The notes beneath the pieces were generated by a model. The model did not search any database, was not told where the DNA came from, and worked only from the letters and a program-made list of their open reading frames with translations. Positions 7,330 to 60,016 of a DNA stretch of 64,000 nucleotides are shown piece by piece. The stretch's first letter is position 1. Every line of letters starts with the position of its first letter. Origin of the DNA: Dehalococcoidia bacterium (GTDB lineage: Bacteria > Chloroflexota > Dehalococcoidia > Lucifugimonadales > GCA-2712585); contig OZ250180.1 in the NCBI GenBank assembly GCA_965238215.1, forward strand, positions 2,661,524-2,725,523. The letters run 5' to 3'. Made by a program: the position numbers and the translations under genes.

Positions 7330-8430
7330 GTGTCCATGACTTGGAGCAATCGTTACGCTAGCGTTACCCTCACCGGCCCAGCCCCTCATAGCCCAAAGCC
7401 AAGGCGCCGCCGCACGACGGTTTGGGGAATCATGTTCGCCGCTCTGCTATTGCCTCTTCTTGTGGGAATCGTCGCGGCCTGCGGCGGCAGCGGCGACGAT
7501 GAAGCAGAATCCCTGACCGTCTACTCAGGTCGCAGCGAATCCCTCGTAGGGCCAATCATCGAGCAGTTCGCCAACGCTACCGGCATAGACGTGAGCGTAA
7601 AGTACGCCAGCACCTCTCAGATGGCCGCAACCCTGGCCGAGGAGGGCGACAACACCCGCGCCGACGTCTTCTTCGCTCAGGACCCCGGCGGCCTGGGATC
7701 AGTCGAGCACATGCTTCAGACCATACCCCAAGAGATTCTGGACAAGACGCCTTCCTGGGCCCGCTCTCCCGAAGGCCGTTGGGTCGGCATATCCGGCCGC
7801 GCCAGGGTCATCGTCTACAACACGGAGAACATCTCGCCCGAGGATATCCCCACCGATTTGTGGGGCTTCACCGACCCCAAGTGGAAGGGCCGCATTGGCT
7901 GGCCCCCCACCAACGCCTCATTCCAGACCATGGTCACCGCCATGCGCCATCTCTGGGGTGAAGAGCGTACCCGCCAGTGGCTGGAGGCTATTCAAGCCAA
8001 CGATCCCAAGGTATACGAGAAGAACACCCCCACCGTCGCTGCGGCGGGGACTGGCGAGATTGACGTGGGTTTCGTCAACCACTACTACCTCTACCGCTTC
8101 TTGGCCGAGGAAGGGGAAAGCTTCGCCGCCAGAAACCACCACCTGGCGGCGGGAGGGCCGGGATCTCTGATAATGGTGGCCGGCGCAGGCATTCTCTCTT
8201 CCTCCGAGAACACCGACGCCGCCGCCAAATTACTGGAGTTCCTGCTTTCGCCCGTGGCCCAGCAATACTTCTCCGGTCAGACCTATGAGTATCCTCTCGT
8301 GGAAGGGGTGAATGTGAACCGTCTCCTGACTCCCCTGGATGAGATAAACAACCCCTCCATATCGATGGAGAATCTGACCAACCTGAGGGGGACGCAGGAG
8401 ATGCTGCGAAGCGTCGGCATCCTGCCCTGA
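7330..8430 (+). CDS. ABC transporter periplasmic substrate-binding lipoprotein, Fe(III)/AfuA-FbpA-like
   Basis: It has a signal peptide with lipobox IVAACGG. The family-1 SBP sequence is SLTVYSGRSESLVGPIIEQFANATGIDVSVKYASTSQMAATLAEEGDNTRADVFFAQDPGG. A two-domain permease and an ATPase follow. Confidence 0.75.
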   Translation: MSMTWSNRYASVTLTGPAPHSPKPRRRRTTVWGIMFAALLLPLLVGIVAACGGSGDDEAESLTVYSGRSESLVGPIIEQFANATGIDVSVKYASTSQMAATLAEEGDNTRADVFFAQDPGGLGSVEHMLQTIPQEILDKTPSWARSPEGRWVGISGRARVIVYNTENISPEDIPTDLWGFTDPKWKGRIGWPPTNASFQTMVTAMRHLWGEERTRQWLEAIQANDPKVYEKNTPTVAAAGTGEIDVGFVNHYYLYRFLAEEGESFAARNHHLAAGGPGSLIMVAGAGILSSSENTDAAAKLLEFLLSPVAQQYFSGQTYEYPLVEGVNVNRLLTPLDEINNPSISMENLTNLRGTQEMLRSVGILP

Positions 8431-16800: not shown

Positions 16801-19701
16801 ATGCCGCAGGAAAACATCGTCATTCGCGGGGCAACCCAGCACAACCTGAAGAACGTCAGCGTGACCATACCCCGGGACAAGCTGGTCGTCATCACGGGCG
16901 TTTCGGGCTCCGGCAAGAGCTCCCTGGCCTTCGACACCATCTACGCCGAAGGCCAGCGACGCTATGTGGAGTCTCTCTCCGCTTACGCGCGCCAGTTTCT
17001 GGGCCGCATGGACAAGCCGGAGGTGGAGTATATCGAAGGGCTTTCGCCCGCAATCTCCATAGACCAGAAGGGCGTGTCCCACAACCCACGCTCCACGGTA
17101 GGCACCGTCACGGAAATCTACGACTATCTGCGCCTCCTCTTCGCTCGCGCGGGTCGGCCCCACTGCCCTGGATGCGGCCAGCCCGTGGCCCGCCAGACGG
17201 TGCAGCAGATTGTGGACTCCATTCTCAGCCTCCCCAACGGCACTCGCATAATGGTGCTGGCCCCCAAGGTTAGACGCCGCAAGGGCGAGCACAAGGACGT
17301 GTTCAGCGAGGCTCGCAAGGAGGGCTTTGCCCGGGTGCGTGTCAACGGAGAGGTCATGCGCGTCGAGGACGCGGAGGGCCTAAACCTGGACAAGCGCCGC
17401 TGGCACTACGTGGAGCTAGCCGTCGACCGCCTCGTGATCGACGAAAACCTGGAGTTGGTTCGGGTCACCGACTCTGTCGAGACGGCCCTCCGCGAGGGCG
17501 GGGGAGTGGTGCAGATTTCGGTGGAGGGCGGCGAGGAGCGGGAGTTCTCCGAGCAGTTTGCCTGCGTAAGCTGCGGCACCGGCCTGCCGGAGATAGAGCC
17601 CCGCACTTTCAGCTTCAACAGCCCCCACGGGGCCTGCTCCGCCTGCACCGGCTTGGGCTACAAGCTGGAGGTGGACCCCGAACTGGTGCTCGCCAACAAG
17701 GACCTGTCACTGCGGGAAGGCGGCGTACTGCCCTGGTCGAGGGCCGGTTCCTCCAGCCCCTGGTACGGCAGTATGCTGGAATCCATCGCCCGCAGCTATG
17801 GCTTCTCTACGAGGGAACCCATACGGAAGCTGTCGGAGCATGCTGTCAACCTCATTCTGTACGGCAACGAGGGCGAGTCCGTCACCATCAAGCACACCAC
17901 ACAGCGGGGCCGCGTCTACAGCTGGAAGACCAACTTCGAAGGTGTAATTCCGAATCTGGAACGCCGCTTCCGGGACACGGACTCCGACTACATTCGGCGC
18001 GAAATCGAGCGTTACATGGCGGCCCGGCCCTGTCAGGCCTGCAGAGGCCTACGCCTGCGCCCGGAGGCCCTTTCGGTGAAGGTAGACGGCCGGGGAATCA
18101 TGGACGTGTGCGGCCTCCCTGTAACCCAAGCCCTCCAATGGGCCAACGGGCTGGCGACGGAGAGTTCCACCAACGGCACTATCCTCCCCCTTTCCGCCCG
18201 TGAGAAGGCCATCGCTCAGCCCATCCTCAAAGAGATCTTTACCCGGCTTCAGTTCCTGGAAAACATCGGATTGGGCTATCTGACCGTGGACCGGTCGGCC
18301 CGCACCCTTTCCGGCGGCGAGGCCCAGCGCATCCGTCTGGCCACCCAGATAGGCTCCGGCCTTACTGGAGTCCTATACGTCTGCGACGAACCCACCATTG
18401 GCCTGCATCCCTTTGACGATAATCGCCTCATCGGCACCCTCAACCACCTACGAGACCTGGGCAACACCGTAATAGTCGTAGAACACGACGAGGCGATCAT
18501 GCGCGCCGCCAACTTCATCGTAGACCTGGGGCCCGGCGCCGGCGAGCACGGCGGAAACGTGGTTGTCACCGGCACTATCGAAGACGTCATGTCTTCCGAC
18601 AAGTCTCTAACCGGCCTCTACCTCAGTGGACGCAAGACCATTCCGATGCCGGAGGCTCGACGGGACGGCAACGGCGCGGCCCTTAAGGTCAAGGGCGCTC
18701 GCGAAAACAACCTCAAGAACGTCAGCGTCAAGTTCCCCCTGGGCCGCCTGGTCTGCGTCACCGGCGTTTCCGGCTCCGGCAAGAGCACCCTGGTCTACGA
18801 AATCCTGTATAAGCGGCTGGCCCAGACCATCAGCCGCGCCAAGGACCGTCCCGGCAAGCACGACGCAATCGAGGGCATGGACTACCTGGACAAGGTTATA
18901 AACATCGACCAGTCCCCCATTGGGCGCACGCCCCGCAGCAATCCGGCCACCTATACGGGCGCCTTCACCCCCATCCGTGACCTTTTCGCCAGCCTGCCCG
19001 AATCCAAGGCCCGGGGCTACAAGCCCGGCCGCTTCTCCTTCAACGTCAAGGGAGGGCGCTGCGAGGCCTGCAAGGGGGAGGGCTACACCCACGTTGAGAT
19101 GCAGTTCCTTCCCGACGTTACCGTGCCCTGCGAGGTCTGCAAGGGCCGGCGATACAACCGGGAGGCCCTGGAGATCCACTACAAGGAGAAGAGCATCGCC
19201 GACGTTCTGGGCATGACGGTCTACACCGCCCTGGAGTTCTTCCAGAACATCCCGAAAATTCGCAACAAAATGGAGACCATGCGGGACGTGGGCCTGGGTT
19301 ACATCCGGTTGGGCCAGCCCGCCACAACCCTATCCGGCGGGGAAGCCCAGAGGGTGAAGCTCTCCACGGAGCTTTCCAAGCGAGCTACCGGCAAGACTCT
19401 CTATCTGCTGGACGAGCCGACCACTGGTCTCTCCTTCTCCGACTGCGCCGCCCTACTGAACGTGCTGCACCGGCTGGTGGACGCGGGCAACTCGATAATT
19501 CTAATCGAGCACCACCTGGACATGATCAAGAACGCTGACTGGATAATCGACATGGGCCCCGGCCCCGCCGACAAGGGCGGGCGGGTGGTGGCAGAGGGAA
19601 CGCCGGAACACATCGTATCGGTGGAAGCTTCCCACACCGGCCACTACCTGAAGAAGGTGTTGACCGCGTCGCGTACACGGGTGGCGGCGGCTGTGGATTA
19701 G
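16801..19701 (+). CDS. uvrA: Excinuclease ABC subunit A
   Basis: The start MPQENIVIRGATQHNLKNVSVTIPRDKLVVITGVSGSGKSSLAFDTIYAEGQRRY is at ATG 16801. There is a second ABC module (GVSGSGKSTLVYE), two LSGGEAQR signatures and Zn-finger CxxC pairs. The track ORF begins upstream at 16708 inside REP-like sequence. Confidence 0.96.
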   Translation: MPQENIVIRGATQHNLKNVSVTIPRDKLVVITGVSGSGKSSLAFDTIYAEGQRRYVESLSAYARQFLGRMDKPEVEYIEGLSPAISIDQKGVSHNPRSTVGTVTEIYDYLRLLFARAGRPHCPGCGQPVARQTVQQIVDSILSLPNGTRIMVLAPKVRRRKGEHKDVFSEARKEGFARVRVNGEVMRVEDAEGLNLDKRRWHYVELAVDRLVIDENLELVRVTDSVETALREGGGVVQISVEGGEEREFSEQFACVSCGTGLPEIEPRTFSFNSPHGACSACTGLGYKLEVDPELVLANKDLSLREGGVLPWSRAGSSSPWYGSMLESIARSYGFSTREPIRKLSEHAVNLILYGNEGESVTIKHTTQRGRVYSWKTNFEGVIPNLERRFRDTDSDYIRREIERYMAARPCQACRGLRLRPEALSVKVDGRGIMDVCGLPVTQALQWANGLATESSTNGTILPLSAREKAIAQPILKEIFTRLQFLENIGLGYLTVDRSARTLSGGEAQRIRLATQIGSGLTGVLYVCDEPTIGLHPFDDNRLIGTLNHLRDLGNTVIVVEHDEAIMRAANFIVDLGPGAGEHGGNVVVTGTIEDVMSSDKSLTGLYLSGRKTIPMPEARRDGNGAALKVKGARENNLKNVSVKFPLGRLVCVTGVSGSGKSTLVYEILYKRLAQTISRAKDRPGKHDAIEGMDYLDKVINIDQSPIGRTPRSNPATYTGAFTPIRDLFASLPESKARGYKPGRFSFNVKGGRCEACKGEGYTHVEMQFLPDVTVPCEVCKGRRYNREALEIHYKEKSIADVLGMTVYTALEFFQNIPKIRNKMETMRDVGLGYIRLGQPATTLSGGEAQRVKLSTELSKRATGKTLYLLDEPTTGLSFSDCAALLNVLHRLVDAGNSIILIEHHLDMIKNADWIIDMGPGPADKGGRVVAEGTPEHIVSVEASHTGHYLKKVLTASRTRVAAAVD

Positions 19702-19786
19702 GGGGGTGGGGCCACACCGTACGAAAGATTGAGCGCCAGGCCTCCGGTTTTTCAGGGGGAATGTACAGAAAGGTTGCGTTGGACGA

Positions 19787-19806
19787 GGGCAAAGTGACTT
19801 TTGCCC
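19787..19806. terminator. Hairpin between convergent uvrA and the islet operon (possible bidirectional terminator)
   Basis: GGGCAAA-GTGACT-TTTGCCC. The U-tract is weak on both strands. Confidence 0.3.
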
Positions 19807-19851
19807 AGTGTCAGTTTGGGGCATATGGACGCTTTTGATTCTTGCAATTTT

Positions 19852-20148
19852 TTATGGCGGAGTGATCTTAAGGGTTTCCAGATCACCCTGTAAGTGATCA
19901 ATGACTTTGTTGATATCGGCAAGGTCAAGCCGGCTGCGATTGTATTTGGTCGCAACATTGGCAGCAAATGGCCTTGAGCCACTGTGTCCAATTCTAACTG
20001 CCAGCCTCTCAATCTCATTCTGTAGAGCCGCATTGTCTTCATGTATCTTGGAAATGCGCTCGTCGATTTGCTGGGAAACCTTTTGTACTACAAGAATACA
20101 TTCCATCAGCCTTTTCACTAGCAAGATATTTGTTTCTCTCTGGTTCAT
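19852..20148 (-). CDS. Hypothetical coiled-coil protein downstream of the MTase-HNH gene
   Basis: The 98-aa ORF lies in low-G+C DNA. SD GAGAGGAG lies ~7 nt before the ATG. It has a heptad-like segment QQIDERISKIHEDNAALQNEIERLAVRI. Confidence 0.4.
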   Translation of the reverse strand: MNQRETNILLVKRLMECILVVQKVSQQIDERISKIHEDNAALQNEIERLAVRIGHSGSRPFAANVATKYNRSRLDLADINKVIDHLQGDLETLKITPP

Positions 20149-20242
20149 TAACTTGCTCCTCTCTTAAACATCAGAACCTTGACGATGTAGCTCGTAACCC
20201 TGCCTAGATAGTCTTGGGAATTATCTTCCTGTGTACTACGGT

Positions 20243-21646
20243 CTAGCGGATGCTAGCTAACTGCGCTAAAAGATACGCCTGTTCCCTGTCTCCCTTGACT
20301 CGGTTGCAGTGGGAACAGAGTAGTTGCAGGTTTTCCAGGTGGTCCGTCCCGCCTTTGGAACGGGGTATCACGTGGTCCACCTCGAATATCTTGAAGGGGA
20401 AGTCCATGTCGCATCCCTTACATCGGCCTTCCTGCTGGCCATAGAGAACGTGCTTGTTCTTGCGATAGTTCTTTGGTGCATCGATATCTGTTCGGCGGAG
20501 AATATCCGTCCGGGCCACTACCTTGCTAGCCCATAACGCAATTCCCGGTTCCTGTTGTTTGAGGCGATACTGAACAAGCTCTGCTGCCTTGGCGGATAAG
20601 TCTATCCCTACCCATTTCCTACCCAGCCGCTCTGCCGCTACGCAAGCAGTGGCGCAACCACTGAAAGGGTCAAGGACTAGGTCGCACTCGTGACTGCTGG
20701 CTTTGATGATTCGTTCTAGAAGGGCAAGGGGTTTTTGAGTGGGATAGCCGGTGCGTTCTGTGCTATGAGCTCCGATCTGCGTGATATCGTCCCACAGATT
20801 TTGGATAGGCATTCCTTTCAGCTCGTCGACAAAACTCTTTCTTCTAAGTCTTCCCGTTTTCTTCTTGGGGTAATGGATACGGCCTTCCCTGTCCCATTGA
20901 GTCATTTTCTCTTTGGTTATCATCCATCCATTCTTGGGTGGCGCATATCCTTTATATTCATAAATCAGATTGGGTCGATATGCAGGATTAGTCAGACTGG
21001 TTGCTTGATACCAACGACCACTTTTGTCAACGTGGGTAAAGTATTTCCGAATGTAGGTCTGATATTCTGGCGAGTCTTTGTTATATTGCGGATAGAATCC
21101 GGCAGACTTTGATTTTGCGTAGAACAAAATGATATCTGTAGAGACGCCAAATCTTACCGAGTCGTGAACGGCACTAGAGTATCCATGTCGCCGCTTCCAA
21201 GAAATCTCATTTCTGAAGTTTGCTGTCCCAAATACGGCGTCCATTAGTTGCTTAAGATAATGGGATGCAAAGGGGTCACAATGTAGGTAGATGCTTCCTG
21301 TGGCCTTGAGTACCCGACGCATCTCTAATAGTCGGACCGCCATCATCGTTAGGTAGGACTGCATCCCCTTGCCGTGGGTTAACCCAGCCGTTCTCAAGAC
21401 GTGGGCAGTTGCTGGTTGCTCATCGGCAATCAAGCCCATCCAGGCAACGTCTAAGTCGGATAGCGTCCAGGTATCCTTAAAGGCAGCCCCTGCGGCCTTG
21501 CTACCTACTGGGGCCGAATAATTGCGATTACTGTTGAAGGGCGGGTCTAAGTAGATAAGGTCAACACACTCGGAGTTCATGCCCCGCAGTATGTCCAGGT
21601 TATCCGCCGTCCATAGTGTGCGGTTAGCGAAATTGGGGGTAGCCAT
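20243..21646 (-). CDS. Beta-class N6-adenine/N4-cytosine DNA methyltransferase fused to a C-terminal HNH endonuclease domain
   Basis: Motif IV IYLDPPFNS is near the N-terminus and motif I LVLDPFSGCATACVAAERLGRKWVGIDL comes later, which is the beta-class order. The last ~60 aa read CKGCDMDF...EVDHVIPRSKGGTDHLENLQLLCSHCNRVKGD, an HNH motif with CxxC pairs. Confidence 0.85.
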   Translation of the reverse strand: MATPNFANRTLWTADNLDILRGMNSECVDLIYLDPPFNSNRNYSAPVGSKAAGAAFKDTWTLSDLDVAWMGLIADEQPATAHVLRTAGLTHGKGMQSYLTMMAVRLLEMRRVLKATGSIYLHCDPFASHYLKQLMDAVFGTANFRNEISWKRRHGYSSAVHDSVRFGVSTDIILFYAKSKSAGFYPQYNKDSPEYQTYIRKYFTHVDKSGRWYQATSLTNPAYRPNLIYEYKGYAPPKNGWMITKEKMTQWDREGRIHYPKKKTGRLRRKSFVDELKGMPIQNLWDDITQIGAHSTERTGYPTQKPLALLERIIKASSHECDLVLDPFSGCATACVAAERLGRKWVGIDLSAKAAELVQYRLKQQEPGIALWASKVVARTDILRRTDIDAPKNYRKNKHVLYGQQEGRCKGCDMDFPFKIFEVDHVIPRSKGGTDHLENLQLLCSHCNRVKGDREQAYLLAQLASIR

Positions 21647-28347: not shown

Positions 28348-30585
28348 TCATGGGCTTTCACCCTCGCATCGGTTCAATGTGGTAGCGTCCACCCACACGT
28401 CCGAAAACTGCTCCGGGAGACATCCCCAAAAATGTTGCCACTTGATGTACAGATGGCGCAGGTCCTTCAGGTTGGCCAATTCCAATGGGAGTTCCCAATC
28501 TCCATAAGCGGAAAATGCCGGTGAAGTTATGCCCTCTATTACGTTAACGGCTAGCGAATGGGTTTGCAGTCTTCTAAGGTTGGCGAGATCCTTAGGTAGG
28601 CCTGTTACCGGTACTACCTTGTAATCGCCTTGGATGATTAGCCACCTGGAAATCGGATGTATCCATCCGACACCCACACCCCAAAGCAGTTCCAGGCCGA
28701 TCACTCTGGGCGGCTCACCGCCAATGGTGATTCCCTCCCATTCATCAATAGGAACGTCGGGACTCCAGTTGAGAGGGACTTCTCTGGCCAGGATGTCCCT
28801 TGTCGACAAGAGAGTGACGCAATCGCCCACCAGCCCAGGATTGCTTTCAGGCCTCTGGACCACAATCCCGTTGCCGCAGGCGGCTTCGCCAGACTCGTAC
28901 TCTCCGAAGGCGGGCGCCTGTGGACCCTTGGCGAGACCACTTCGCACCAATAACTGTACGTTCGTGCCATCCGGGTCCATAGTGTAGACGACCGGATATC
29001 CCCCCGGTTCCGCGCTGGGAAAGTCGAGAGCCCGCACCGCTATCCTTGATCCATCCGGGGGCCAAGCTATCCTAGGGCCATCCCCCACATAGAGTCGGGC
29101 TGGCAGTATTTCCTGCGTTGGTGATTCGCTAACCACACCACTCTCCAAGTTGACAATGCAGATCCCCACGTCGCATTGAAACATGATGTGCGCCCCGTCA
29201 GGTGACCAGGACAGATTGTCTATCCAAGAACCGTAGCGATTTGCGAATCTATCTCCACCGAGAGTAATCTTGGCGACCTCAATCGATTCAGAACCGTCAC
29301 TGGCTACCGTGACAAGGAATACACCTTCTCTACGAAGCTCAGCAAATGCCAAGCGGCTCCCATCGGGAGACCAGGAGGCCGTACTGACTATCTCCGACAC
29401 CCTGTCGATTTCAGTGCCGTCAACTTCAATCGCATATACGGCCCTCCCATGATCCTCCCCTCGATCATACTTCTCCTCACTGTATTCGACGACTACAAGC
29501 GCCACGTGTTCGCCATCGGGAGACCACACAGGGACAAGGGAAGAGAAATCCACACCATCCACATCGTCCGGAACTCCCTCAGCTTGTTCCAGGTGCCACC
29601 AACCAACTTCCCGAATATGCGAGCCATCCCTTGACATTACTTGAAGCACTAGTAGAGGTGAGGGATCACTACTGCTGCTGAAATAGGCTATTCTTCTACC
29701 ATCGGGAGACCAGGTGGGATAGTGGTCTATGTTTTCATTCTCCGTAAGACGTCTCACTTGTGTGCCGTCGATGGCCACAGTCCCGATCTCATAGTGGTAG
29801 TAGTCTCGCTCAATTACACCTTCTCTTGTTCGGTACTCCGAAATCTCTGATGTGTATTGACACGAGGTGTACACAATACTAGAACCATCTGGCGAAACAT
29901 CGGCATAGAAGCCGTCCCTAAAGTTTAATCCTGGATTCGCATCGACCACCACTCGGAGCCCGGAACCGTCAGCGCCCACAATCATCACTGCCGAATCGTC
30001 GTCAAACATAATACTGGAACCATCGGGGGTCCAATGTATGAAGTGTTCGATAATGCCTATAGGATTATCAATATACCATCCGCTTATACAAGGATAGTTA
30101 GGTGGGTGGCCAGACGTGTACTCTTTGACCGTGGTAAGAGTTGGCGCGGGTGTTGGTTCAGGCGTAGAGGTTGGAGTTGGCGCCGGTGTCGGTTCAGGCG
30201 CAGGGGTAGGTGTTGGTGTAGTCATTGGAGTTTGTGTAGAGGTAGGCATGGGAGCTGGAGTTGGTGCCGGCGTCGGTTCAGGTCTAGAGGTGGGGATTAG
30301 CGTCGGCGTCGGTTCAGGCGTAGGGGTAGGTGTTGGCGCCGGTGTCGGTCCGGGCGTAGGGGTTGGTGTAACGTCGCTCAGTTCCATTTCGGGAGTTGCA
30401 GTTGGGGTCGGAGTTGGTGGTTGTGTTGCCGTTGCTTCCGGCGACCCAACCTTCGTCTCAATGGTGGGCGCAGACGTTGGACTGCTTGATTCGCTCTCGC
30501 AGCCGATTACGGCAAGGCAGAACAATGCGGCTATTTCCGCCTTAGCAATGCTTCCAGCGATCTTCATGTTTTGTAGCCTGACCAT
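28348..30585 (-). CDS. Large secreted lipoprotein: Pro/Thr linker, TolB-like beta-propeller repeats and a C-terminal LRR-like domain
   Basis: The signal peptide with lipobox AVIGC follows M at 30585 (or 30567). A ~100-aa PT-rich linker comes next. Repeated motifs of the form SPDGxxIxF/Y...DG ([70 protein letters not shown]) are typical of TolB/WD40-like blades. The C-terminus reads [19 protein letters not shown]...LNWS and has L-rich repeats. G+C is lower than in the flanks by eye. Confidence 0.7.
30130..30423 (-). repeat. Low-complexity imperfect tandem repeats encoding the (P-T/A/E)n linker
   Basis: On the plus strand, units such as GGCGCCGGTGTCGGTTCAGGCG.AGGGGTAGGTGTTGG recur. The translation is [22 protein letters not shown]... 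Confidence 0.8.
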
Positions 30586-30927
30586 GACAGTTGAAGTGCC
30601 AGTTATGATACACCAACAAGGACTGGGGCTCGCCCTAGTCTCTATACCTGCTTCAAGGTGAACCCAGAAAGTTGGACAGGGACATGTCCGTTGTTGAGAG
30701 AGAATACCTCTGATCTTTGCCAACGTCCTGGTCCTACACTGCAGCCTAAGCCAGTTTTCGGACCGAAACTAAGAATCGCGTCATCTTCCGATTGCCGCCC
30801 GAACATCGACGCAATTCTCCGCCATGCCTTGTGCTGCGTTCAGAATCATGGACGCCACTCAGCGGCATGTAACCAAAGCCATGTATACTGGAGGTACAGG
30901 AATGCACCTACCATCAAGTCAAGAACT

Positions 30928-38068: not shown

Positions 38069-38547
38069 GCCTTGGCCTCTAACAGCGCGACGGCATAGGC
38101 CGCCAGACCTTCGCCTCGGCCGGCGAACCCCATGTGGTCGGTGGTGGTAGCCTTGATGCTCACGTCCGCCTGATCCGCTCCCAGGGCTTGTGCCAAATTC
38201 TCTCGCATTCCGTCTATAAAAGGCCCCAGTCGGGGCCGCTGCGCCAGTATTGTAGCATCCACGTTGACCACCCGCCACCGACGGGCCGAGACCAGGGAAG
38301 CCGTCCGCTTCAACAGCAGAAGGCTGGAGATGCCTTTAAGCGAGGGGTCGCTGGACGGAAAGTGCACGCCCTTGTCACCCAGGGCCGCGGCCCCCAAGAG
38401 AGCATCCATCAGTGCGTGAACCACCACGTCGCCATCGCTGTGACCGGAAAGCCCCTTGTCGAAGGGAACCTCAACCCCGCCCAGAATTAGGGGCCGCCCG
38501 TTTACCAGGGGATGAGCGTCGAAGCCCAAGCCCACTCGCATACTCAC
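38065..38547 (-). CDS. ispF: 2-C-methyl-D-erythritol 2,4-cyclodiphosphate synthase
   Basis: The 160-aa ORF reads RVGLGFDAHPL...LILGGVEVPFDKGLSGHSDGDVVVHALMDALLGA. Confidence 0.95.
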   Translation of the reverse strand: MSMRVGLGFDAHPLVNGRPLILGGVEVPFDKGLSGHSDGDVVVHALMDALLGAAALGDKGVHFPSSDPSLKGISSLLLLKRTASLVSARRWRVVNVDATILAQRPRLGPFIDGMRENLAQALGADQADVSIKATTTDHMGFAGRGEGLAAYAVALLEAKA

Positions 38548-51038: not shown

Positions 51039-52152
51039 GTGCAAGAGTTGAGACACAAGCTGCAGGAGACGACCCGGAGGGTGGACCAGATCCTGGAGCA
51101 TCTTTGACGTTCCCGATAAAGAGACCCAAATTGCGCGTATAGAGAAGGAGTCCTATAACCCGGACTTCTGGCAGGACCCACCCAAGGCCCAGTCGCAAAT
51201 GCAGCGGCTTACCCACTTGAAGGACACTGTGCAGGCTTGGCATGGCCTTCGCGACCAGGGTGCCTATCTACTGGAACTGGTGGAAATGTCTCTGGAAGAA
51301 GGGGACGACTCCCTTGAGCCACAGATAACCAAGGAATCGGAGTCCTTCCTGGACGACCTGCGGGAAAAGGAGATGGAACTCACCCTCTCCGGCCCCTACG
51401 ACCGACGGCCCGCCATCCTGTCCATCCAATCAGGCGCCGGCGGCGTAGACTCCCAGGACTGGAGTCAGATGCTCCTCCGCATGTACCTTCGATGGGCGGA
51501 ACGCCGTGGCTGTAAGGTGCAAATGCTTAACCTGTCCGATGCCGACGGCGGGGGAATCAAGAGCGCGGCGTTGGAGATTTCCGGACCCCTGGCCTTCGGC
51601 TACCTCAAGGCGGAAAAGGGCGTTCACCGGCTGGTGCGTCTTTCCCCCTTCAACAGCGACCACCTTCGCCACACCTCCTTCGCCCAAGTCGTCGTGCTCC
51701 CAGCCGCCGACGAGGAAGACGCAGAGGTGGAGATTCGGCCCGAAGACTTGAAGATTGACTTCTTCCGCTCCAGCGGACCGGGAGGACAAAACGTCCAGAA
51801 GGTCGCCTCAGCCGTCCGGCTGACCCACCTGCCCACCGGATTAGTCGTAAGCTGCCAGACAGAGCGCTCCCAGCACCAGAACAGGGAATACGCCACCACC
51901 CTCCTTAAAGCCCACCTGCTCCAGCTGCGTTTGGAAGAGCGCGCCAAGAAAATGGCGGAGCTTCGCGGCAAAAGGGTCTCCGCCGAATGGGGGAGCCAGA
52001 TTAGGAGCTACGTGCTCCACCCCTACCGTATGGTGAAAGACCACCGCAGCCAACACCAGGTATCCGATGCCGCCGCCGTACTCGATGGCGACATCGACGA
52101 TTTTCTAAAGGCATACCTTCTGGCCTCCGTTGGGGGAAACGTCCACCCGTAA
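51039..52152 (+). CDS. prfB: Peptide chain release factor 2, requiring a programmed +1 frameshift at 51105
   Basis: Frame 0 runs from GTG 51039 (GGAG lies 8 nt upstream) and reads VQELRHKLQETTRRVDQILEHL, then CTT TGA C. The +1 frame continues DVPDKETQIARIEKESYNPDFWQDPPKAQ... into ORF 51199..52152 (51199-51106=93). It has the RF2 SPF motif (RLSPFNS) and GGQ (SGPGGQNVQK). Confidence 0.92.
51095..51108 (+). promoter_or_regulatory. RF2 autoregulatory frameshift site
   Basis: GGAG-CAT-CTT-TGA-C has the same layout as the E. coli site (SD-like element, 3-nt spacer, CUU UGA C). Confidence 0.88.
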
Positions 52153-53578: not shown

Positions 53579-54595
53579 TCAGCCATCCAAAAGGGAGTCA
53601 AACAGTTCTTGCCACTTGTCGGATCCGCTGTAGCTGGAACGGGAAACTATTATCCCGTTAGCGTCTAGGACCACGGCTGATGCCTGCACGGTTATCCGGT
53701 AATCGTTGTTCGCGTCACTATCGTAGACCGTCATTGACCAGGTGAAGCCGTTCGAATTACTCCATGACTCGATCTGTGAAGCGCTTTCCCCTGGGTCTTG
53801 GCCAATACCGATAACGTGAACGCGTCCCTCATATTCGGGGTATATCCCTGTGAGGCTCCGCAACGCGGAGCGACATTTGGGTCACCAGGTGGCGAAGTAG
53901 TAGAGGATGACCGGGCTGCCCCGCAAACTGGATAGCGAAATCTCCTCCCCGTCCACCGAGGTCAACGTGAAGCCCGGCCCTTGCTGTCCCACCCTGCTTC
54001 CCACCTCCACGGCCACGGGTTCCGGCGTAGGGGCCGGCGTGGGGGCCGGGGTTGGTGTAGGAGTAGGTGGCTCTGGCGTCGGGGTGGGAGGCGGCGGCGT
54101 GGCTACAGCCGTCGCCGCGGCTGTTGGCGCGGGCGCGGCGGGAGTCGCCTGCGGCGGCGCAGATGTGGATGCCGTTGGAGTGGCAGCAGGCGGTGCCGGC
54201 ACAACGGTCGAGCTTTCGGCTGGAGCAGGCGTTGGTCGGGATGCCGACACAACAGCCGTTGCCGCCGGCGCAGGTGTAGAAGTTGGCGCTGCTGCTGTAG
54301 GCGCAGCCTGCGTAGGTGCAGATGGGGAAGCGGTGGACGCGCTGGCTATCGGGGCCGAAGTCGGCGTTGCCGGGGGCGTTGTATCAGCAGCCGTAGTCGC
54401 CGGCGGGGTTGAAGTCGGAGGGGCGGGAGTGGGCGGAGGGGCAGTCTGAGTTGGCGGCGCGGTCGCGGCAGTTGGCTCAGAGGTAGCGTCAGTGTCTATG
54501 ACAGTAACGTCACCGCCGCAAGACGCGACGAAAACAGCCATCAGGAGGACGGCTGTCAGCAGAATCACGCTCAGGCTGCGGACATTCACATGCAT
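53579..54595 (-). CDS. TlpA/redoxin-like thioredoxin-fold lipoprotein with an in-frame UGA (probable selenocysteine, U-P-K-C active site)
   Basis: Track ORFs 53882..54595 and 53579..53863 are in the same frame, 7 codons apart. Read-through gives ...ILYYFATW-U-PKCRSALRSLTGIYPEYEGRVHVIGIG... It has lipobox FVASC and a ~155-aa P/T/A linker. A hairpin follows the UGA. Confidence 0.6.
53855..53884 (-). promoter_or_regulatory. UGA codon plus candidate bacterial SECIS hairpin
   Basis: The minus strand reads UGA CCCAAAUGUC GCUCCGC-GUU-GCGGAGC. This is a perfect 7-bp stem, and the apical loop starting G,U begins 17 nt after the UGA. The stem is extendable by UGU/ACA across a small internal loop. Confidence 0.5.
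54017..54484 (-). repeat. Low-complexity Pro/Thr/Ala-coding region
   Basis: It encodes TSEPTAATAPPTQTAPPPTPAPPTSTPPATT...[27 protein letters not shown]. It shares the [11 protein letters not shown] flavour with the 30130..30423 linker. Confidence 0.8.
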
Positions 54596-55898: not shown

Positions 55899-55992
55899 GG
55901 ACCCTCCAGAAAAGTGCTAAAACAACGCCGCAAGTATATCACCCCACCCACCCAAGGGCTAGCCGAATGTTGGAGTGGAAGAAGGATAAAGC

Positions 55993-56020
55993 TTGACACG
56001 ACTTAACCATATTATATAAT
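55993..56020 (+). promoter_or_regulatory. Near-consensus sigma70 promoter at the left edge of the low-G+C islet
   Basis: TTGACA (55993..55998), a 16-nt spacer, TATAAT (56015..56020). Confidence 0.5.
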
Positions 56021-56044
56021 GGCCAGTAGCCATACATTATAGCA

Positions 56045-56329
56045 ATGTACGCAGTATTACAACGATATAGACTGGATTTACATATGCAGAATACGATAGA
56101 GACAAGGCCACAGAAATTTACAAGGCTTGCTGAACAGCGGGTAAACAGTATTTTGGATAAAATACGTCTATTGGGACAGTTATCCAACCGCAGCAACTAT
56201 GAATATACCGATGCTCAAGTAGAAATGATCTTCAAGGCCATACAAAAGGACCTGAGCGCCGTTAAGTTGAAGTTTAGAGAGGGTTCCAATGGCCGGAAAC
56301 GCTTCTCTCTGAATGAAATGACGGATTAG
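56045..56329 (+). CDS. Hypothetical small protein, first gene of the islet
   Basis: The ORF is 94 aa, or 81 aa from ATG 56084 (MQNTIETRPQKFTRLAEQRVNSILDKIRLLGQLSNRSNYEYTDAQVEMIFKAIQKDLSAVKLKF...). It looks helical and I recognise no motif. Confidence 0.4.
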   Translation: MYAVLQRYRLDLHMQNTIETRPQKFTRLAEQRVNSILDKIRLLGQLSNRSNYEYTDAQVEMIFKAIQKDLSAVKLKFREGSNGRKRFSLNEMTD

Positions 56330-56384
56330 ACCGCTCTGGCTTGAACCCATATCTGCGATGTTGAACCTGATTTAGGAGTGCGCT

Positions 56385-58764
56385 ATGCCTGACGCGGGAC
56401 TCTCTCCACAAAAGCTCTGCATGGATCTTTTGCATGCCGATACAGAGGAAACAGTTATTGACCTCCTCAAACAAGCAGGTTACTGGGACAACCCAAAAGC
56501 TTGGCGGCCCTTCGGTGACAAAGAGGACAACTTCTCTACCATAGGCAATCAGGCTAGGACACCAGAGGGTGCTCTGGTCGAAAAGCTGGTTAACTCCGTC
56601 GACGCCGTCTTGATGGGAGAATGTTGGTCAAGAGGAATTCGCCCCAACTCTAACCAAGCGCCAGGAAGCATCTAAGGATGCGGTAGCACAATTCTTTGGT
56701 GACGGTTCAAGACCAGAAACCCAGGGAGACCTTAGCTCGTGGCCTGACAAAAAACTGCGTAAGGTTTCCAATTTGATTACAGTAGCAACTACCGGTACGA
56801 GGGGAAATCCCAGCATTACAGTTGTAGATGCGGGAGAAGGACAAAGACCAAGGGATTTACCTGATACTATCCTCTCCTTGGACAAGCAGAACAAGATAGA
56901 TATTCATTTTGTGCAGGGTACTTTCAATATGGGAGGCACGGCTGCACTGCGATTTTGTGGAGAGCGAAATTTGCAACTCGTAATTAGCAAGCGGAACCCA
57001 AACATCGAATCTGATCGGGACAAGGACTCTTCCGCAGATCAATGGGGATTTACGATAATTCGCAGGAAAGACCCATCAAGCAACAGAAAGATGTCTACGT
57101 ACAAATATCTTGCTCCAGAGAAAAATGCCGTCTTACGGTTCCATGCCGCGTCTCTGCCGCTATTCCCTGTATTCAATAGGGCCTATGCTCGCCCTACAGA
57201 GTGGGGAACGGCAATCAAGCTTTATGAGTACAAGCTGGACGGCAGGAGCCATGTCCTTCTCAGAGGTGGTCTCTTGAGACGTCTGGACATTCTCTTACCA
57301 AGTATAGCTTTGCCCGTAAGGCTCCACGAATGTAGGAGCTTCAAGGGACGATCCGCCAGTTTCGATAATAGCTTAACTGGGCTAAGGGTGAGACTAAGTA
57401 ATGAACGCAATTTGGAATCCGGATTCCCCAAAAGCGGCAGCATGGTAATTAATGAGCAAAGGATGTTCATAGAAATTTACGCCTTCAAAAAGGGAGGAGC
57501 AGCTACCTATATGAAACCAACTGAAGGCATCATATTTGCTGTCAACGGACAAACTCAAGGGAAGCGACATAGAAAGTTTTTCAGTAGACGATCAGTGGGT
57601 ATGAATCGACTTGAGGATTCAATACTGGTGGTCGTCGATTGCAGCCTCATAAACGGTCGGCATAGAGAAGACTTGTTCATCAACGACAGAGACGGTATGG
57701 CGGAAGGGCCATTTCTGAAGGCGATAGAGCGAGAGTTAGAACTAATCTTGAAAGGCCATCAAGGATTGAGGGACCTACGAGAGAAACGCCGTAGCGACGA
57801 CATAGCATCAAAACTAGAGGATTCGAAACCATTCAAAGATCTGCTAGGGGACGTGATCCGTAAGTTTCCAGTATTGACATCGCTATTTGGAGATGGCGGA
57901 CCTTTATCCAATCCGGTTAGACCAGAAGAGGTAAAGCCCAAGATAGAGTTCATGGGGAGATCCCATCCCACCATCTTTTACTTCCGCAACAAGAACTATG
58001 GTGAGAAGCTGTATAGAACTACCCCCTTAAACATGCGTAGCAGGATCATTTTTGAGACTGACGTGGCAGATGACTATTTTACTCGTGGAAGATATCGCGG
58101 AGAGTCCACACTTCACCGACTGAATGATCCTCCCAAGAATGGAGCACTTCCTAAGCATGGACTCAATCTGGATAACGGCGTTGCTACACTGAATCTCGCA
58201 TTGCCTCAACACCCGAAAGTTGGTGACACATATGAATACGAATTCAGAGTAAGCGATGATACATTACTGGAGCCCTTTGTTAACTATTTCTCAGTGTCGG
58301 TGGGGCCTTTGCAAAAGAAGCGCCCTCATCCCCCGGTGCCACCCCCGAGCTTAGCTGTTCCTAATGCGATACCAGTGTACAAATCAAATTGGAAGGATTA
58401 TGGCTTTGACGAGTACTCAGCCTTGAAGGCTATCTATGACCCATCCGATGATGGGTCAACTGGTTCGCACACCTATTACATAAACATGGACAACTTCTTC
58501 CTAAGGACTGAACTAAAGTCGGCTAAATCGAATGTTGAAATCTTGAAGGCCAAATGGTTATACGCAATGGCACTCATAGCTATGGCTTTGCTACGTGACG
58601 ATAAAGCCAATAGTTCTTCTAACGGAAATAGACGGAAAGAACAGGGCCATGATGGAGATCTATCACCTGAAGAGAAAGCGTTTGGAGCAACGAAAGCCAT
58701 CGCACCTGTACTCTTGCCAATGATCCAGCACCTAGGTGGGTTATCGGATGAAAATATCAGTTGA
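56385..58764 (+). pseudogene. GHKL (Bergerat-fold, MORC/paraMORC-like) ATPase of about 790 aa, interrupted by a 1-nt frameshift near 56670-56675
   Basis: ORF 56385..56675 carries the N-box (EKLVNSVDA). ORF 56773..58764 carries G1 (ITVVDAGEGQ) and G2 (GTFNMGGTAAL). The second frame is open back to 56614 and reads ...KDAVAQFFGDGSRPETQGDLSSWPDKKLRKVSNLITVATTG. SD AGGAG lies 7 nt before ATG 56385. It could instead be a sequencing error in an intact gene. Confidence 0.65.
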
Positions 58765-58782
58765 GGAAGCTAAGAAAGCAAA

Positions 58783-59958
58783 TCAAACGATGGGCCGATG
58801 AACTAGTAAAATTTCCTTGCTGGCGGAATTTTCGGGGATTGGGTGGGTATACCACCGCCTATTCGGTACAGAGCGTACTAGACGAGATTGAATTGGACCG
58901 TCAGAGGTTTCTTCGAATCCGGCATCCGTCATCGTCTCCAAATACTTTGGCAACTGCACGGCGGGGTCACGGAAAGACACAAGCTGTACAACCTTAGCAT
59001 CGGCAGCGACTATGCTCCTTATGTTCTTGAAGGCAGAAGATAAGTTGCTGAAATAGTTGCTCATTCCTAATGCGGAGCGCCCCCCCATGGTATAAAACGA
59101 TTCTCCGTGGCCGTCGCGTAGCTCGCCGAGCCAGTAAGGAGCTGGTGTCTCCCGTCTTCCAAGAACCTGCCACCTATGATAGAGAACGTGCACCCCGGGA
59201 TATGGCGGAGATGTAAGGACCAACTTGGGTCTAATCTGGTGTCTTCGCAGATGGAAGGTTAGGAGTCCATTAGACGCGGAGAGGCGGAGGATTTGCCGTC
59301 CACTTGTTATTTTGTTCTTGCGAATTCCCCTCGACCTTGCCGCACCAACAAAAGCATTCAATCCCGCTATCATCTTCTCTACGGTAATTCGAAGTTGGTC
59401 ACTGAGTTCCTTCGAGTCGGGTACGGATTTGCGCGCATCTAGAGCCCACTGTCCGACCCCAATTAAGGCGCATCGCGCAAATTGGCGACGCCGCGGAAAT
59501 CGCAGGTTTCTAGCCAATCTTATCGCCGAATCAAAGAACGGGAATAATTGGATTGGCATGTTCCGGACAGGAGATCCGGAACGCGGGTAGAATTCTGGCA
59601 ACTCGTAGTCAAAACTGCAAACTTGGCGAACCCAGCCTCGAACCTCGTCCACATCCTGGGGGCTTAATGGGGTGGTCTTGACTCTTGTAACAAACTGAGC
59701 CAGTTCGTTTATGTCTGAGCCAATAACACGCCGTCCAGAAGCTGCAGCTTCTACAATTGTGGTCCCTCCACCCATAAAAGGGTCGAAGACGAAGTCCCCT
59801 GGCTTTGTAAAGTAATCCAGAACGAAACGAACAAAGCGTGGACTAAACCGTGCTGGGTATTTGTAGAAATTGTGAGTGAAGCCTTCCACTCTCTTAGTGG
59901 AGTGGAAGGCTTCACCAAATTGCATATCTTTAAGCCCCAAGTCTCCAAGTGTCAACAA
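58783..59958 (-). CDS. DNA methyltransferase (N4-cytosine or N6-adenine) with SPPY catalytic motif
   Basis: The 391-aa ORF has an AdoMet motif FVFDPFMGGGTTIVEAAASGRRVIGSDIN near the N-terminus. The catalytic motif LVLTSPPYPG lies ~190 aa later, an alpha-like order with an intervening target-recognition region. It is convergent with the ATPase gene, with an 18-nt gap. Confidence 0.85.
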   Translation of the reverse strand: MLTLGDLGLKDMQFGEAFHSTKRVEGFTHNFYKYPARFSPRFVRFVLDYFTKPGDFVFDPFMGGGTTIVEAAASGRRVIGSDINELAQFVTRVKTTPLSPQDVDEVRGWVRQVCSFDYELPEFYPRSGSPVRNMPIQLFPFFDSAIRLARNLRFPRRRQFARCALIGVGQWALDARKSVPDSKELSDQLRITVEKMIAGLNAFVGAARSRGIRKNKITSGRQILRLSASNGLLTFHLRRHQIRPKLVLTSPPYPGVHVLYHRWQVLGRRETPAPYWLGELRDGHGESFYTMGGRSALGMSNYFSNLSSAFKNIRSIVAADAKVVQLVSFRDPAVQLPKYLETMTDAGFEETSDGPIQSRLVRSVPNRRWYTHPIPENSASKEILLVHRPIV

Positions 59959-60016
59959 GATGCGTAATTGTTAGAGCTAGGGCAGTCAGTTGTCAAGCAT
60001 TTTTGCCCCTCGCCCT

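Follow-up and report, generated by a model that had tools for sequence, protein, structure and literature searches.

Thioredoxin-fold proteins in which selenocysteine (Sec) opens a UxxC motif are long-established predicted selenoprotein families (PMC1794560, PMC9312934, PMC13188914), among them a peroxiredoxin (Prx)-like thiol:disulfide oxidoreductase (PF00578) and a thiol:disulfide interchange protein. The Prx-like family is defined by PF00578 with UxxC or UxxU and is represented by WP_010940744.1 (PMC13188914, PMC9312934, PMC1794560), while the thiol-disulfide isomerase-like selenoprotein, described from ocean metagenomes, carries UxxC in a TlpA-like domain (cd02966 / PF13905) (PMC13188914, PMC9312934). 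The present work concerns a redoxin gene in a 64,000-nucleotide stretch (the window) of contig OZ250180.1 from an uncultured Dehalococcoidia (Chloroflexota) bacterium. Two adjacent open reading frames (ORFs) on its minus strand, divided by an in-frame UGA, are in all probability one genuine selenoprotein gene. The remaining doubt lies in the Sec machinery, which is assumed at class level.

The upstream ORF (54595..53882, minus strand) encodes 237 aa, ending in GSPVILYYFATW / LRGSPVILYYFATW and then TGA at 53884..53882. Past this internal TGA the frame continues as CCC AAA TGT CGC TCC GCG TTG (P-K-C-R-S-A-L) and holds 100 open codons before the terminal TGA at 53581..53579; the TTG at 53863, seven codons past the internal TGA, opens the listed 94-aa ORF 53863..53579. 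Read through, the complete predicted selenoprotein gene covers 53579..54595 and has 338 sense codons, including the Sec-UGA at codon 238, plus the terminal TGA; the frame is continuous and the architecture is kept in homologues. The N-terminus (54518..54595) reads as a lipoprotein signal peptide, MHVNVRSLSVILLTAVLLMAVFVAS, with a V-A-S-C lipobox, and continues after the cleavage point as CGG, whose first residue is Cys26 (54520..54518). Lipidation of Cys26 is predicted from the lipobox motif. A V-A-A-C-G-G lipobox is kept in 10 complete N-terminal homologue fragments (P0013–P0022), while an eleventh, P0023, begins upstream in a different frame. Residues 27–193 (54017..54517) form a low-complexity linker of about 167 aa, rich in Pro, Thr and Ala by composition, and residues 194–338 (53582..54016) form the thioredoxin-fold catalytic domain, assigned from Pfam and PDB matches as AhpC-TSA/Redoxin and ResA/TlpA-like, which spans the UGA. 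The third-position GC content (GC3) of the gene is about 0.58–0.63, below that of its neighbours at 0.75–0.79. A first-pass annotation, made by a model from the letters of the sequence, had proposed here a 338-codon redoxin lipoprotein with a long Pro/Thr/Ala linker, split in two at a UGA. Its ORF ends, same-frame continuation and TGA site are correct to the base, the single gene is supported by frame and homologues, and the linker and redoxin domain were recovered; the lipoprotein part of the proposal agrees with the lipobox as a motif.

For the Pfam search the stop codon was replaced with Cys. The C-terminal 145 residues match PF00578 (AhpC-TSA; 61.4 bits, cut-off 26) and PF13905 (Thioredoxin_8; 34.1 bits, cut-off 27); PF08534 (Redoxin) is also above its gathering score. 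Solved structures of the ResA/TlpA-like type align over query residues 6–132, nearly the whole domain. The UGA (53882..53884), assigned as Sec238 in W-U-P-K-C from homologue conservation and structure alignment, falls on the leading Cys of W-C-x-x-C in alignments with 3kcm, 4nmu and 3c71 (WCPPC/WCKPC in 3kcm and 4nmu) and with P0012, the sole full-length relative. The resolving Cys of UxxC, Cys241 (TGT, 53873..53875), is Cys in 20/20 copies, encoded by both TGT and TGC, and the alignments thus bear out the placement of the UGA at the first Cys of WCxxC with its partner retained. Further invariant alignment columns are H67, D74, E77, N89, W93, Y107, D119 and W136. Matches to named NCBIfam families fall below their cut-offs: ResA 49.6 against 170, StoA 30.6 against 210, DsbE 29.9 against 359 and TlpA 22.9 against 230. 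Peroxiredoxins are marked by a peroxidatic PxxxTxxC motif and by a conserved Arg where ResA has its cis-proline; here the corresponding residues are F-A-T-W-U-P-K-C, and the cis-Pro-equivalent is Ala or Ser, not Arg. Judging by its domain and motif, the protein probably works like a TlpA/ResA-type redoxin, and it should not be filed in those named families.

The read-through domain was searched against 5.8 billion proteins. It found 11 clusters of C-terminal fragments (88–94 residues, 62–83% identity) and 11 clusters of N-terminal fragments, all with YYFATW as their last residues; at 62–83% identity all matches are fragments with one end at the UGA. P0012 is 39% identical and has the Cys form, WCGPC with codon TGC, and no hairpin at the equivalent position. 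Among the matches of this search no close relative carries TGC or TGT at this codon. Homologous DNA came from eight species-level genomes, all labelled Dehalococcoidia bacterium metagenome-assembled genomes (MAGs), with the records OZ253467.1, OX638324.1 and OY762063.1 labelled as chromosomes, and from several ENA metagenome contigs. TGA follows the Trp codon in all 24 intact copies of these loci (L001–L013, L016–L018), tandem paralogues included, always within the pattern W-TGA-CC[CGT]-NNN-TG[TC] and followed by 98–101 open codons. Over the 44 codons that precede the UGA the median dN/dS (pairwise Nei-Gojobori, 20 distinct copies) is 0.18, and over the codons after the hairpin it is 0.22; most dS values against the window copy exceed 1. 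As far as seen, the clade is confined to uncultured Dehalococcoidia.

Most related genomes carry two tandem paralogues of this predicted Sec-redoxin, one with a short and one with a long linker, and both have the UGA and the hairpin described below. Such pairs lie at L001 9713..11418, L003 1..1820 and L004 8537..10267, and also in L006, L007, L010, L011, L013, L016 and L017; the window holds the long-linker copy alone. The upstream ORF ranges across paralogues and orthologues from about 94–125 to 229–271 codons. Copy 1 of L002, which is not among the 24 intact copies, has a frameshift 35 codons past the UGA and represents a pseudogene or else an error of long-read assembly.

Ten nucleotides past the TGA begins a perfect 7-bp hairpin, GCUCCGC-GUU-GCGGAGC (53855..53871, minus strand), set inside the codons for R-S-A-L-R-S, with its loop beginning 17 nt past the TGA. 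In folding, the 17-mer reaches −11.6 kcal/mol (z = −3.95), a value matched by 1 of 200 shuffles, and the 39 nt that begin at the UGA reach −17.6 kcal/mol (z = −3.35), matched by none of 200. Over 19 distinct sequences the seven stem pairs are paired at 96.2%, compared with 35–56% in controls whose 3′ partners were slid by 1–3 columns. Compensatory changes on both sides occur in three of the seven pairs, and none of 500 shuffles matches the covariation score. The pair at the stem base shows a G-C to A-U double change; in L007 a G-C to U-A change (Ala to Ser) is offset by the synonymous change CGG to AGG; and one paralogue clade has replaced C-G with A-U through GCG UUG to GAG UUU, turning Ala-Leu into Glu-Phe. 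The GUU loop bases are invariant among the hairpin sequences. Synonymous diversity is zero in the stem codons CGC, TCC, GCG and TTG (R49, S50, A51, L52), while 61 other 4–6-fold degenerate columns have a median diversity of 0.52, with one of them at zero (Mann-Whitney p = 1.5e-4). The hairpin is held by selection on RNA structure.

A published consensus for the bacterial selenocysteine insertion sequence (bSECIS) specifies an apical loop of 3–9 nt, an upper stem of 4–16 bp, G in the first two loop positions, a UGA-to-loop spacing of 16–37 nt and a minimum free energy of −7.5 kcal/mol or lower (PMC13188914). All of these hold for the hairpin, with a 3-nt loop, 7 bp, G then U, 17 nt and −11.6 kcal/mol. 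No Rfam family matched it, either at gathering thresholds over the whole window or at permissive thresholds over 53780..53950. The first-pass annotation had called this a SECIS-like hairpin; its sequence, position (53871..53855) and spacings were all reproduced, and covariation and suppressed synonymous change add to its case. The UGU/ACA stem extension it had suggested survives in part, since U19-A43 is invariant and G20-C42 is paired in only 13 of 19 sequences. The outer CCC/GGG helix below the hairpin is 58% paired. Taking folding, covariation and silent-site constancy together, we consider the hairpin a probable bacterial SECIS core.

We propose that UGA codon 238 is decoded as Sec by the standard bacterial recoding route, a proposal that draws on gene anatomy and the literature. 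The hairpin would act as the SECIS, its GUU loop recruiting SelB-GTP-Sec-tRNASec as the ribosome reaches the UGA, in competition with release factor 2 (RF2). The prolipoprotein would then be cut between VAS and C26, and the lipidated Cys would tether the protein to the outside of the cytoplasmic membrane, with the linker of about 167 residues spacing the C-terminal thioredoxin-fold domain away from it. By homology with ResA/TlpA/CcmG, the Sec238 selenolate would be the attacking nucleophile and Cys241 would resolve the intermediate to a selenenylsulfide, which a putative membrane electron shuttle may re-reduce. The direction of electron flow and the substrate are presumed from the same homology.

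Several points weigh against this reading. The z-score of the hairpin is only −1.2 in a wider 71-nt context, so that folding energy alone is mixed support and not decisive; the comparative data settle the hairpin question. The hairpin also overlaps the conserved peptide RSALRS, and the protein accounts for part of its conservation; the synonymous-site and compensatory-change tests address this overlap on about 20 related sequences. Neither selA, selB, selD nor tRNA-Sec was found in the 64-kb window or in the fetched loci: ARAGORN returned zero tRNA in the window and in 13 loci, and Pfam annotation of about 45 window ORFs gave no Sec-pathway gene. Two scans of the window yielded no credible second selenoprotein gene. 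At the level of enzyme chemistry, the canonical cis-proline of ResA/TlpA is absent from the family: the site (L-P-T in ResA; columns 112–113 of the alignment of all homologues) has Ala in 16 of the 20 copies and Ser in the other 4, and the residue before it is Gln in every copy. Neither the Pfam-annotated window ORFs nor the conserved neighbours include a CcdA, DsbD, Ccm, Msr or Sco partner. The proposed disulfide-reductase role is the least secure step of the mechanism, because the cis-proline is missing and no CcdA/DsbD, cytochrome-c maturation or Msr partner lies nearby. It is unlikely, though conceivable, that the clade, with its invariant W-U-P-x-C centre, is a distinct catalytic type of extracytoplasmic selenoenzyme and not a ResA/TlpA-type disulfide reductase; one example could be a surface-tethered peroxidase or an enzyme handling sulfenates or selenenates. 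The Ala/Ser position with its invariant Gln presumably corresponds to Trp-Asn in the active site of glutathione peroxidase. Were this alternative true, the short- and long-linker paralogues would let one chemistry operate both nearer to and farther from the membrane.

The selenoprotein reading has to be set against other accounts of the same UGA. It could be a TGY-to-TGA nonsense mutation in a Cys-type TlpA-like redoxin, with the downstream ORF as a decaying remnant. One base change turns TGT or TGC into TGA, public gene callers do split the gene, and copy 1 of L002 is frameshifted past its UGA. Yet the TGA is present in every intact copy across eight species-level genomes and in both tandem paralogues, the roughly 100 downstream codons are always open and constrained (dN/dS about 0.22 at dS mostly above 1), and no close relative has the Cys form. 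The frame past the UGA has long been under purifying selection, so a pseudogene is effectively ruled out, and we give it next to no probability. The first-pass annotation had kept this alternative and tied it to an unconserved downstream protein and to close TGC/TGT relatives lacking the hairpin; what was found is a conserved downstream protein, a single Cys form at 39% identity and, in the homologue alignment it proposed, a uniform TGA column with a conserved hairpin. Very improbable, too, is a genuine stop that yields a truncated lipoprotein and possibly a separate 94-aa protein from the TTG at 53863, the hairpin then serving in pausing, mRNA stability or translational coupling. Such a stop would cut one thioredoxin fold in two at its catalytic Cys, leaving halves that could not fold or act by themselves, and the C-terminal piece would have no signal peptide. 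The TTG does open a callable ORF, and RF2 is encoded in the window; but several homologues have no start codon at that position, their called fragments beginning downstream (88–89 aa), and the six codons from UGA to TTG (P-x-C-R-S-A) are conserved as protein, the invariant resolving Cys included.

Somewhat less improbable, though still improbable, is read-through with another residue, either by a near-cognate or suppressor tRNA (Cys, Trp or other) aided by the hairpin or through reassignment of UGA. Inserted Cys or Trp would keep the frame equally well, and the Sec machinery of this genome is itself an assumption. However, UGA behaves as an ordinary stop here. The 34 Pfam-supported window genes end in TGA (11), TAG (19) or TAA (4), with an internal TGA in none of them. 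The RF2 gene prfB (window 51039..52152, plus strand) starts with an ORF0 running from GTG 51039 to CTT TGA C at 51102..51108 and continues in the +1 frame through PCRF and RF-1 domains, a classic autoregulatory frameshift. As UGA ends 11 of 34 genes, lies inside none and is needed as a stop at the prfB site, reassignment is excluded. Against a suppressor tRNA stand the loop sequence and spacing of the hairpin, which match the SelB-dependent bSECIS consensus, the location of the codon at a typical Sec/Cys exchange site (UxxC), and the heavy use of Sec documented for the class Dehalococcoidia. Among the ten bacteria richest in selenoprotein genes in BSepDB are two MAGs of Dehalococcoidia, with 49 and 46 (PMC13326102); the entry rule of that database is at least two Sec-pathway genes per species. 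In addition, tRNA-Sec of unusual 8/4 structure is reported from Chloroflexi (PMC5389517), and sponge-symbiont bins of various phyla are enriched in SelA and SelB (PMC5649159). The Sec machinery of the present genome is assumed from this class-level literature.

All ENA, JGI and NCBI MAG annotations examined split the gene into two small proteins, unnamed or hypothetical; one public fragment is labelled as an SCO1/SenC Cu-insertion factor. Correctly annotated, the gene would give at least eight species-level lineages of Dehalococcoidia a surface redox enzyme of 338 residues, and would add an exported, predicted lipid-anchored selenoprotein to a class already reported to be rich in them. The probable SECIS within a conserved peptide, where Ala-Leu to Glu-Phe co-varies to preserve pairing, provides a test case for SECIS predictors. 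The understanding of Sec decoding and of thioredoxin-fold selenoproteins is unchanged; the result is an annotation correction together with a clean SECIS example.

The two scans of the window differed in principle. A codon-usage log-likelihood scan for in-frame TGAs placed the known redoxin UGA outside its top 25, because the GC3 of the gene is about 0.6 against a genomic 0.75–0.8. The other scan looked for a SECIS pattern, that is, a TGA with open frame on both sides and a hairpin obeying the bSECIS rules, and recovered the redoxin together with six other sites. Four of these were rejected as lying inside known genes (7330–8430, UvrA and the TGT gene) in another frame or on the opposite strand; the site at 19895 was rejected as AT-rich, non-coding-looking DNA, and that at 38312 was rejected on the basis of its Ala/Pro/Cys-rich peptide only.

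The gene order rpsB ... aminotransferase, redoxin, MFS, prfB, endonuclease V, TauE, TGT is common to the window and the fetched loci, and the other window genes are ordinary housekeeping genes. Between the aminotransferase gene and rpsB lies a 4.1-kb low-GC3 island (55899..59967; GC3 0.47–0.51 against about 0.75–0.8), which encodes a 663-aa protein matched by neither Pfam nor PADLOC (56773..58764, plus strand) and a Type II DNA methyltransferase-like protein (58783..59958, minus strand). What fills this slot varies between loci: L004 has a GmrSD_N/SLFN_AlbA_2 protein there, L002 has an 894-aa protein and a cadherin-like ORF, and L016 and L017 carry yet other ORFs, which gives the slot the look of a hotspot for variable genes of the defence type. 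Between the MFS gene and prfB, three loci carry a HigB-like toxin gene with a small ORF of 89–92 aa (L003 3249..3808, L004 11736..12286, L005 4205..4755), the small ORF of L003 alone giving a weak HTH_31 match. The window lacks this pair, and the gap between its MFS gene and prfB is 10 nt. Elsewhere in the window, a gene at 20243..21646 (minus strand) encodes a DNA methyltransferase (N6_N4_Mtase) that ends in a fused HNH endonuclease domain; since its GC3 of 0.55 is below the genomic norm, it was probably acquired horizontally. It has AT-rich flanks at 19700..20240. A 791-aa PD40/WD40-like beta-propeller protein is encoded at 28348..30723 (minus strand), between a siroheme/heme cluster and a PCMT gene, with a GC3 of 0.52 and a composition atypical for the window.

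Among known systems, the Sec-containing families NF041054 (ResA-like WAxxUGC) and NF053656 (TUGYCR) share the thioredoxin fold and Sec in the active-site turn and gave weak matches. Membership in either was rejected: the scores are far below the cut-offs (23.9 against 300 and 16.2 against 100), and W-U-P-K-C differs from UGC and TUGYCR. The protein shares its fold with ResA of Bacillus subtilis, TlpA of Bradyrhizobium and CcmG/DsbE, with their W-C-x-x-C aligned to W-U-P-K-C, and like them it would be extracytoplasmic and membrane-tethered, as its signal motif suggests. Unlike them, it has predicted Sec in place of the nucleophilic Cys, Ala/Ser in place of cis-Pro, NCBIfam scores far below the cut-offs, and no cytochrome-c maturation or CcdA context in the window. 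Surface lipoproteins of Streptococcus pneumoniae (2yp6, 4hqz, 4hqs; E-values 1e-11 to 1e-12) provide a parallel for an anchored TlpA-like domain outside a single membrane. We take these structures to be Etrx1/Etrx2, which supply electrons to extracellular methionine sulfoxide reductase. They differ from the present protein in using CxxC, in having no long P/T linker and in not being selenoproteins, and no msr gene adjoins the window gene.

The gene also resembles the Prx-like and the thiol-disulfide isomerase-like selenoprotein families. With the Prx-like family the gene shares PF00578 as its best Pfam match, predicted Sec as the first residue of UxxC, a putative SECIS directly downstream within the coding region, and a predicted redox function; the likeness to this family, whose representative is from Geobacter, is one of domain and motif. 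The predicted lipoprotein form with its long Pro/Thr/Ala linker, the usual tandem pair and the Gln-Ala/Ser at the cis-Pro site set it apart from that family, and these features, together with the peptide-embedded SECIS, are specific to this clade. With the thiol-disulfide isomerase-like selenoprotein (MGB1650493.1, MAK15852.1) it has in common the PF13905 match, the TlpA-like domain, UxxC and an origin in metagenomes or MAGs of uncultured bacteria, a likeness drawn from domain, motif and description. The gene thus fits the defining domain and motif of both the Prx-like and the thiol-disulfide isomerase-like selenoprotein families, and it may already be in BSepDB.

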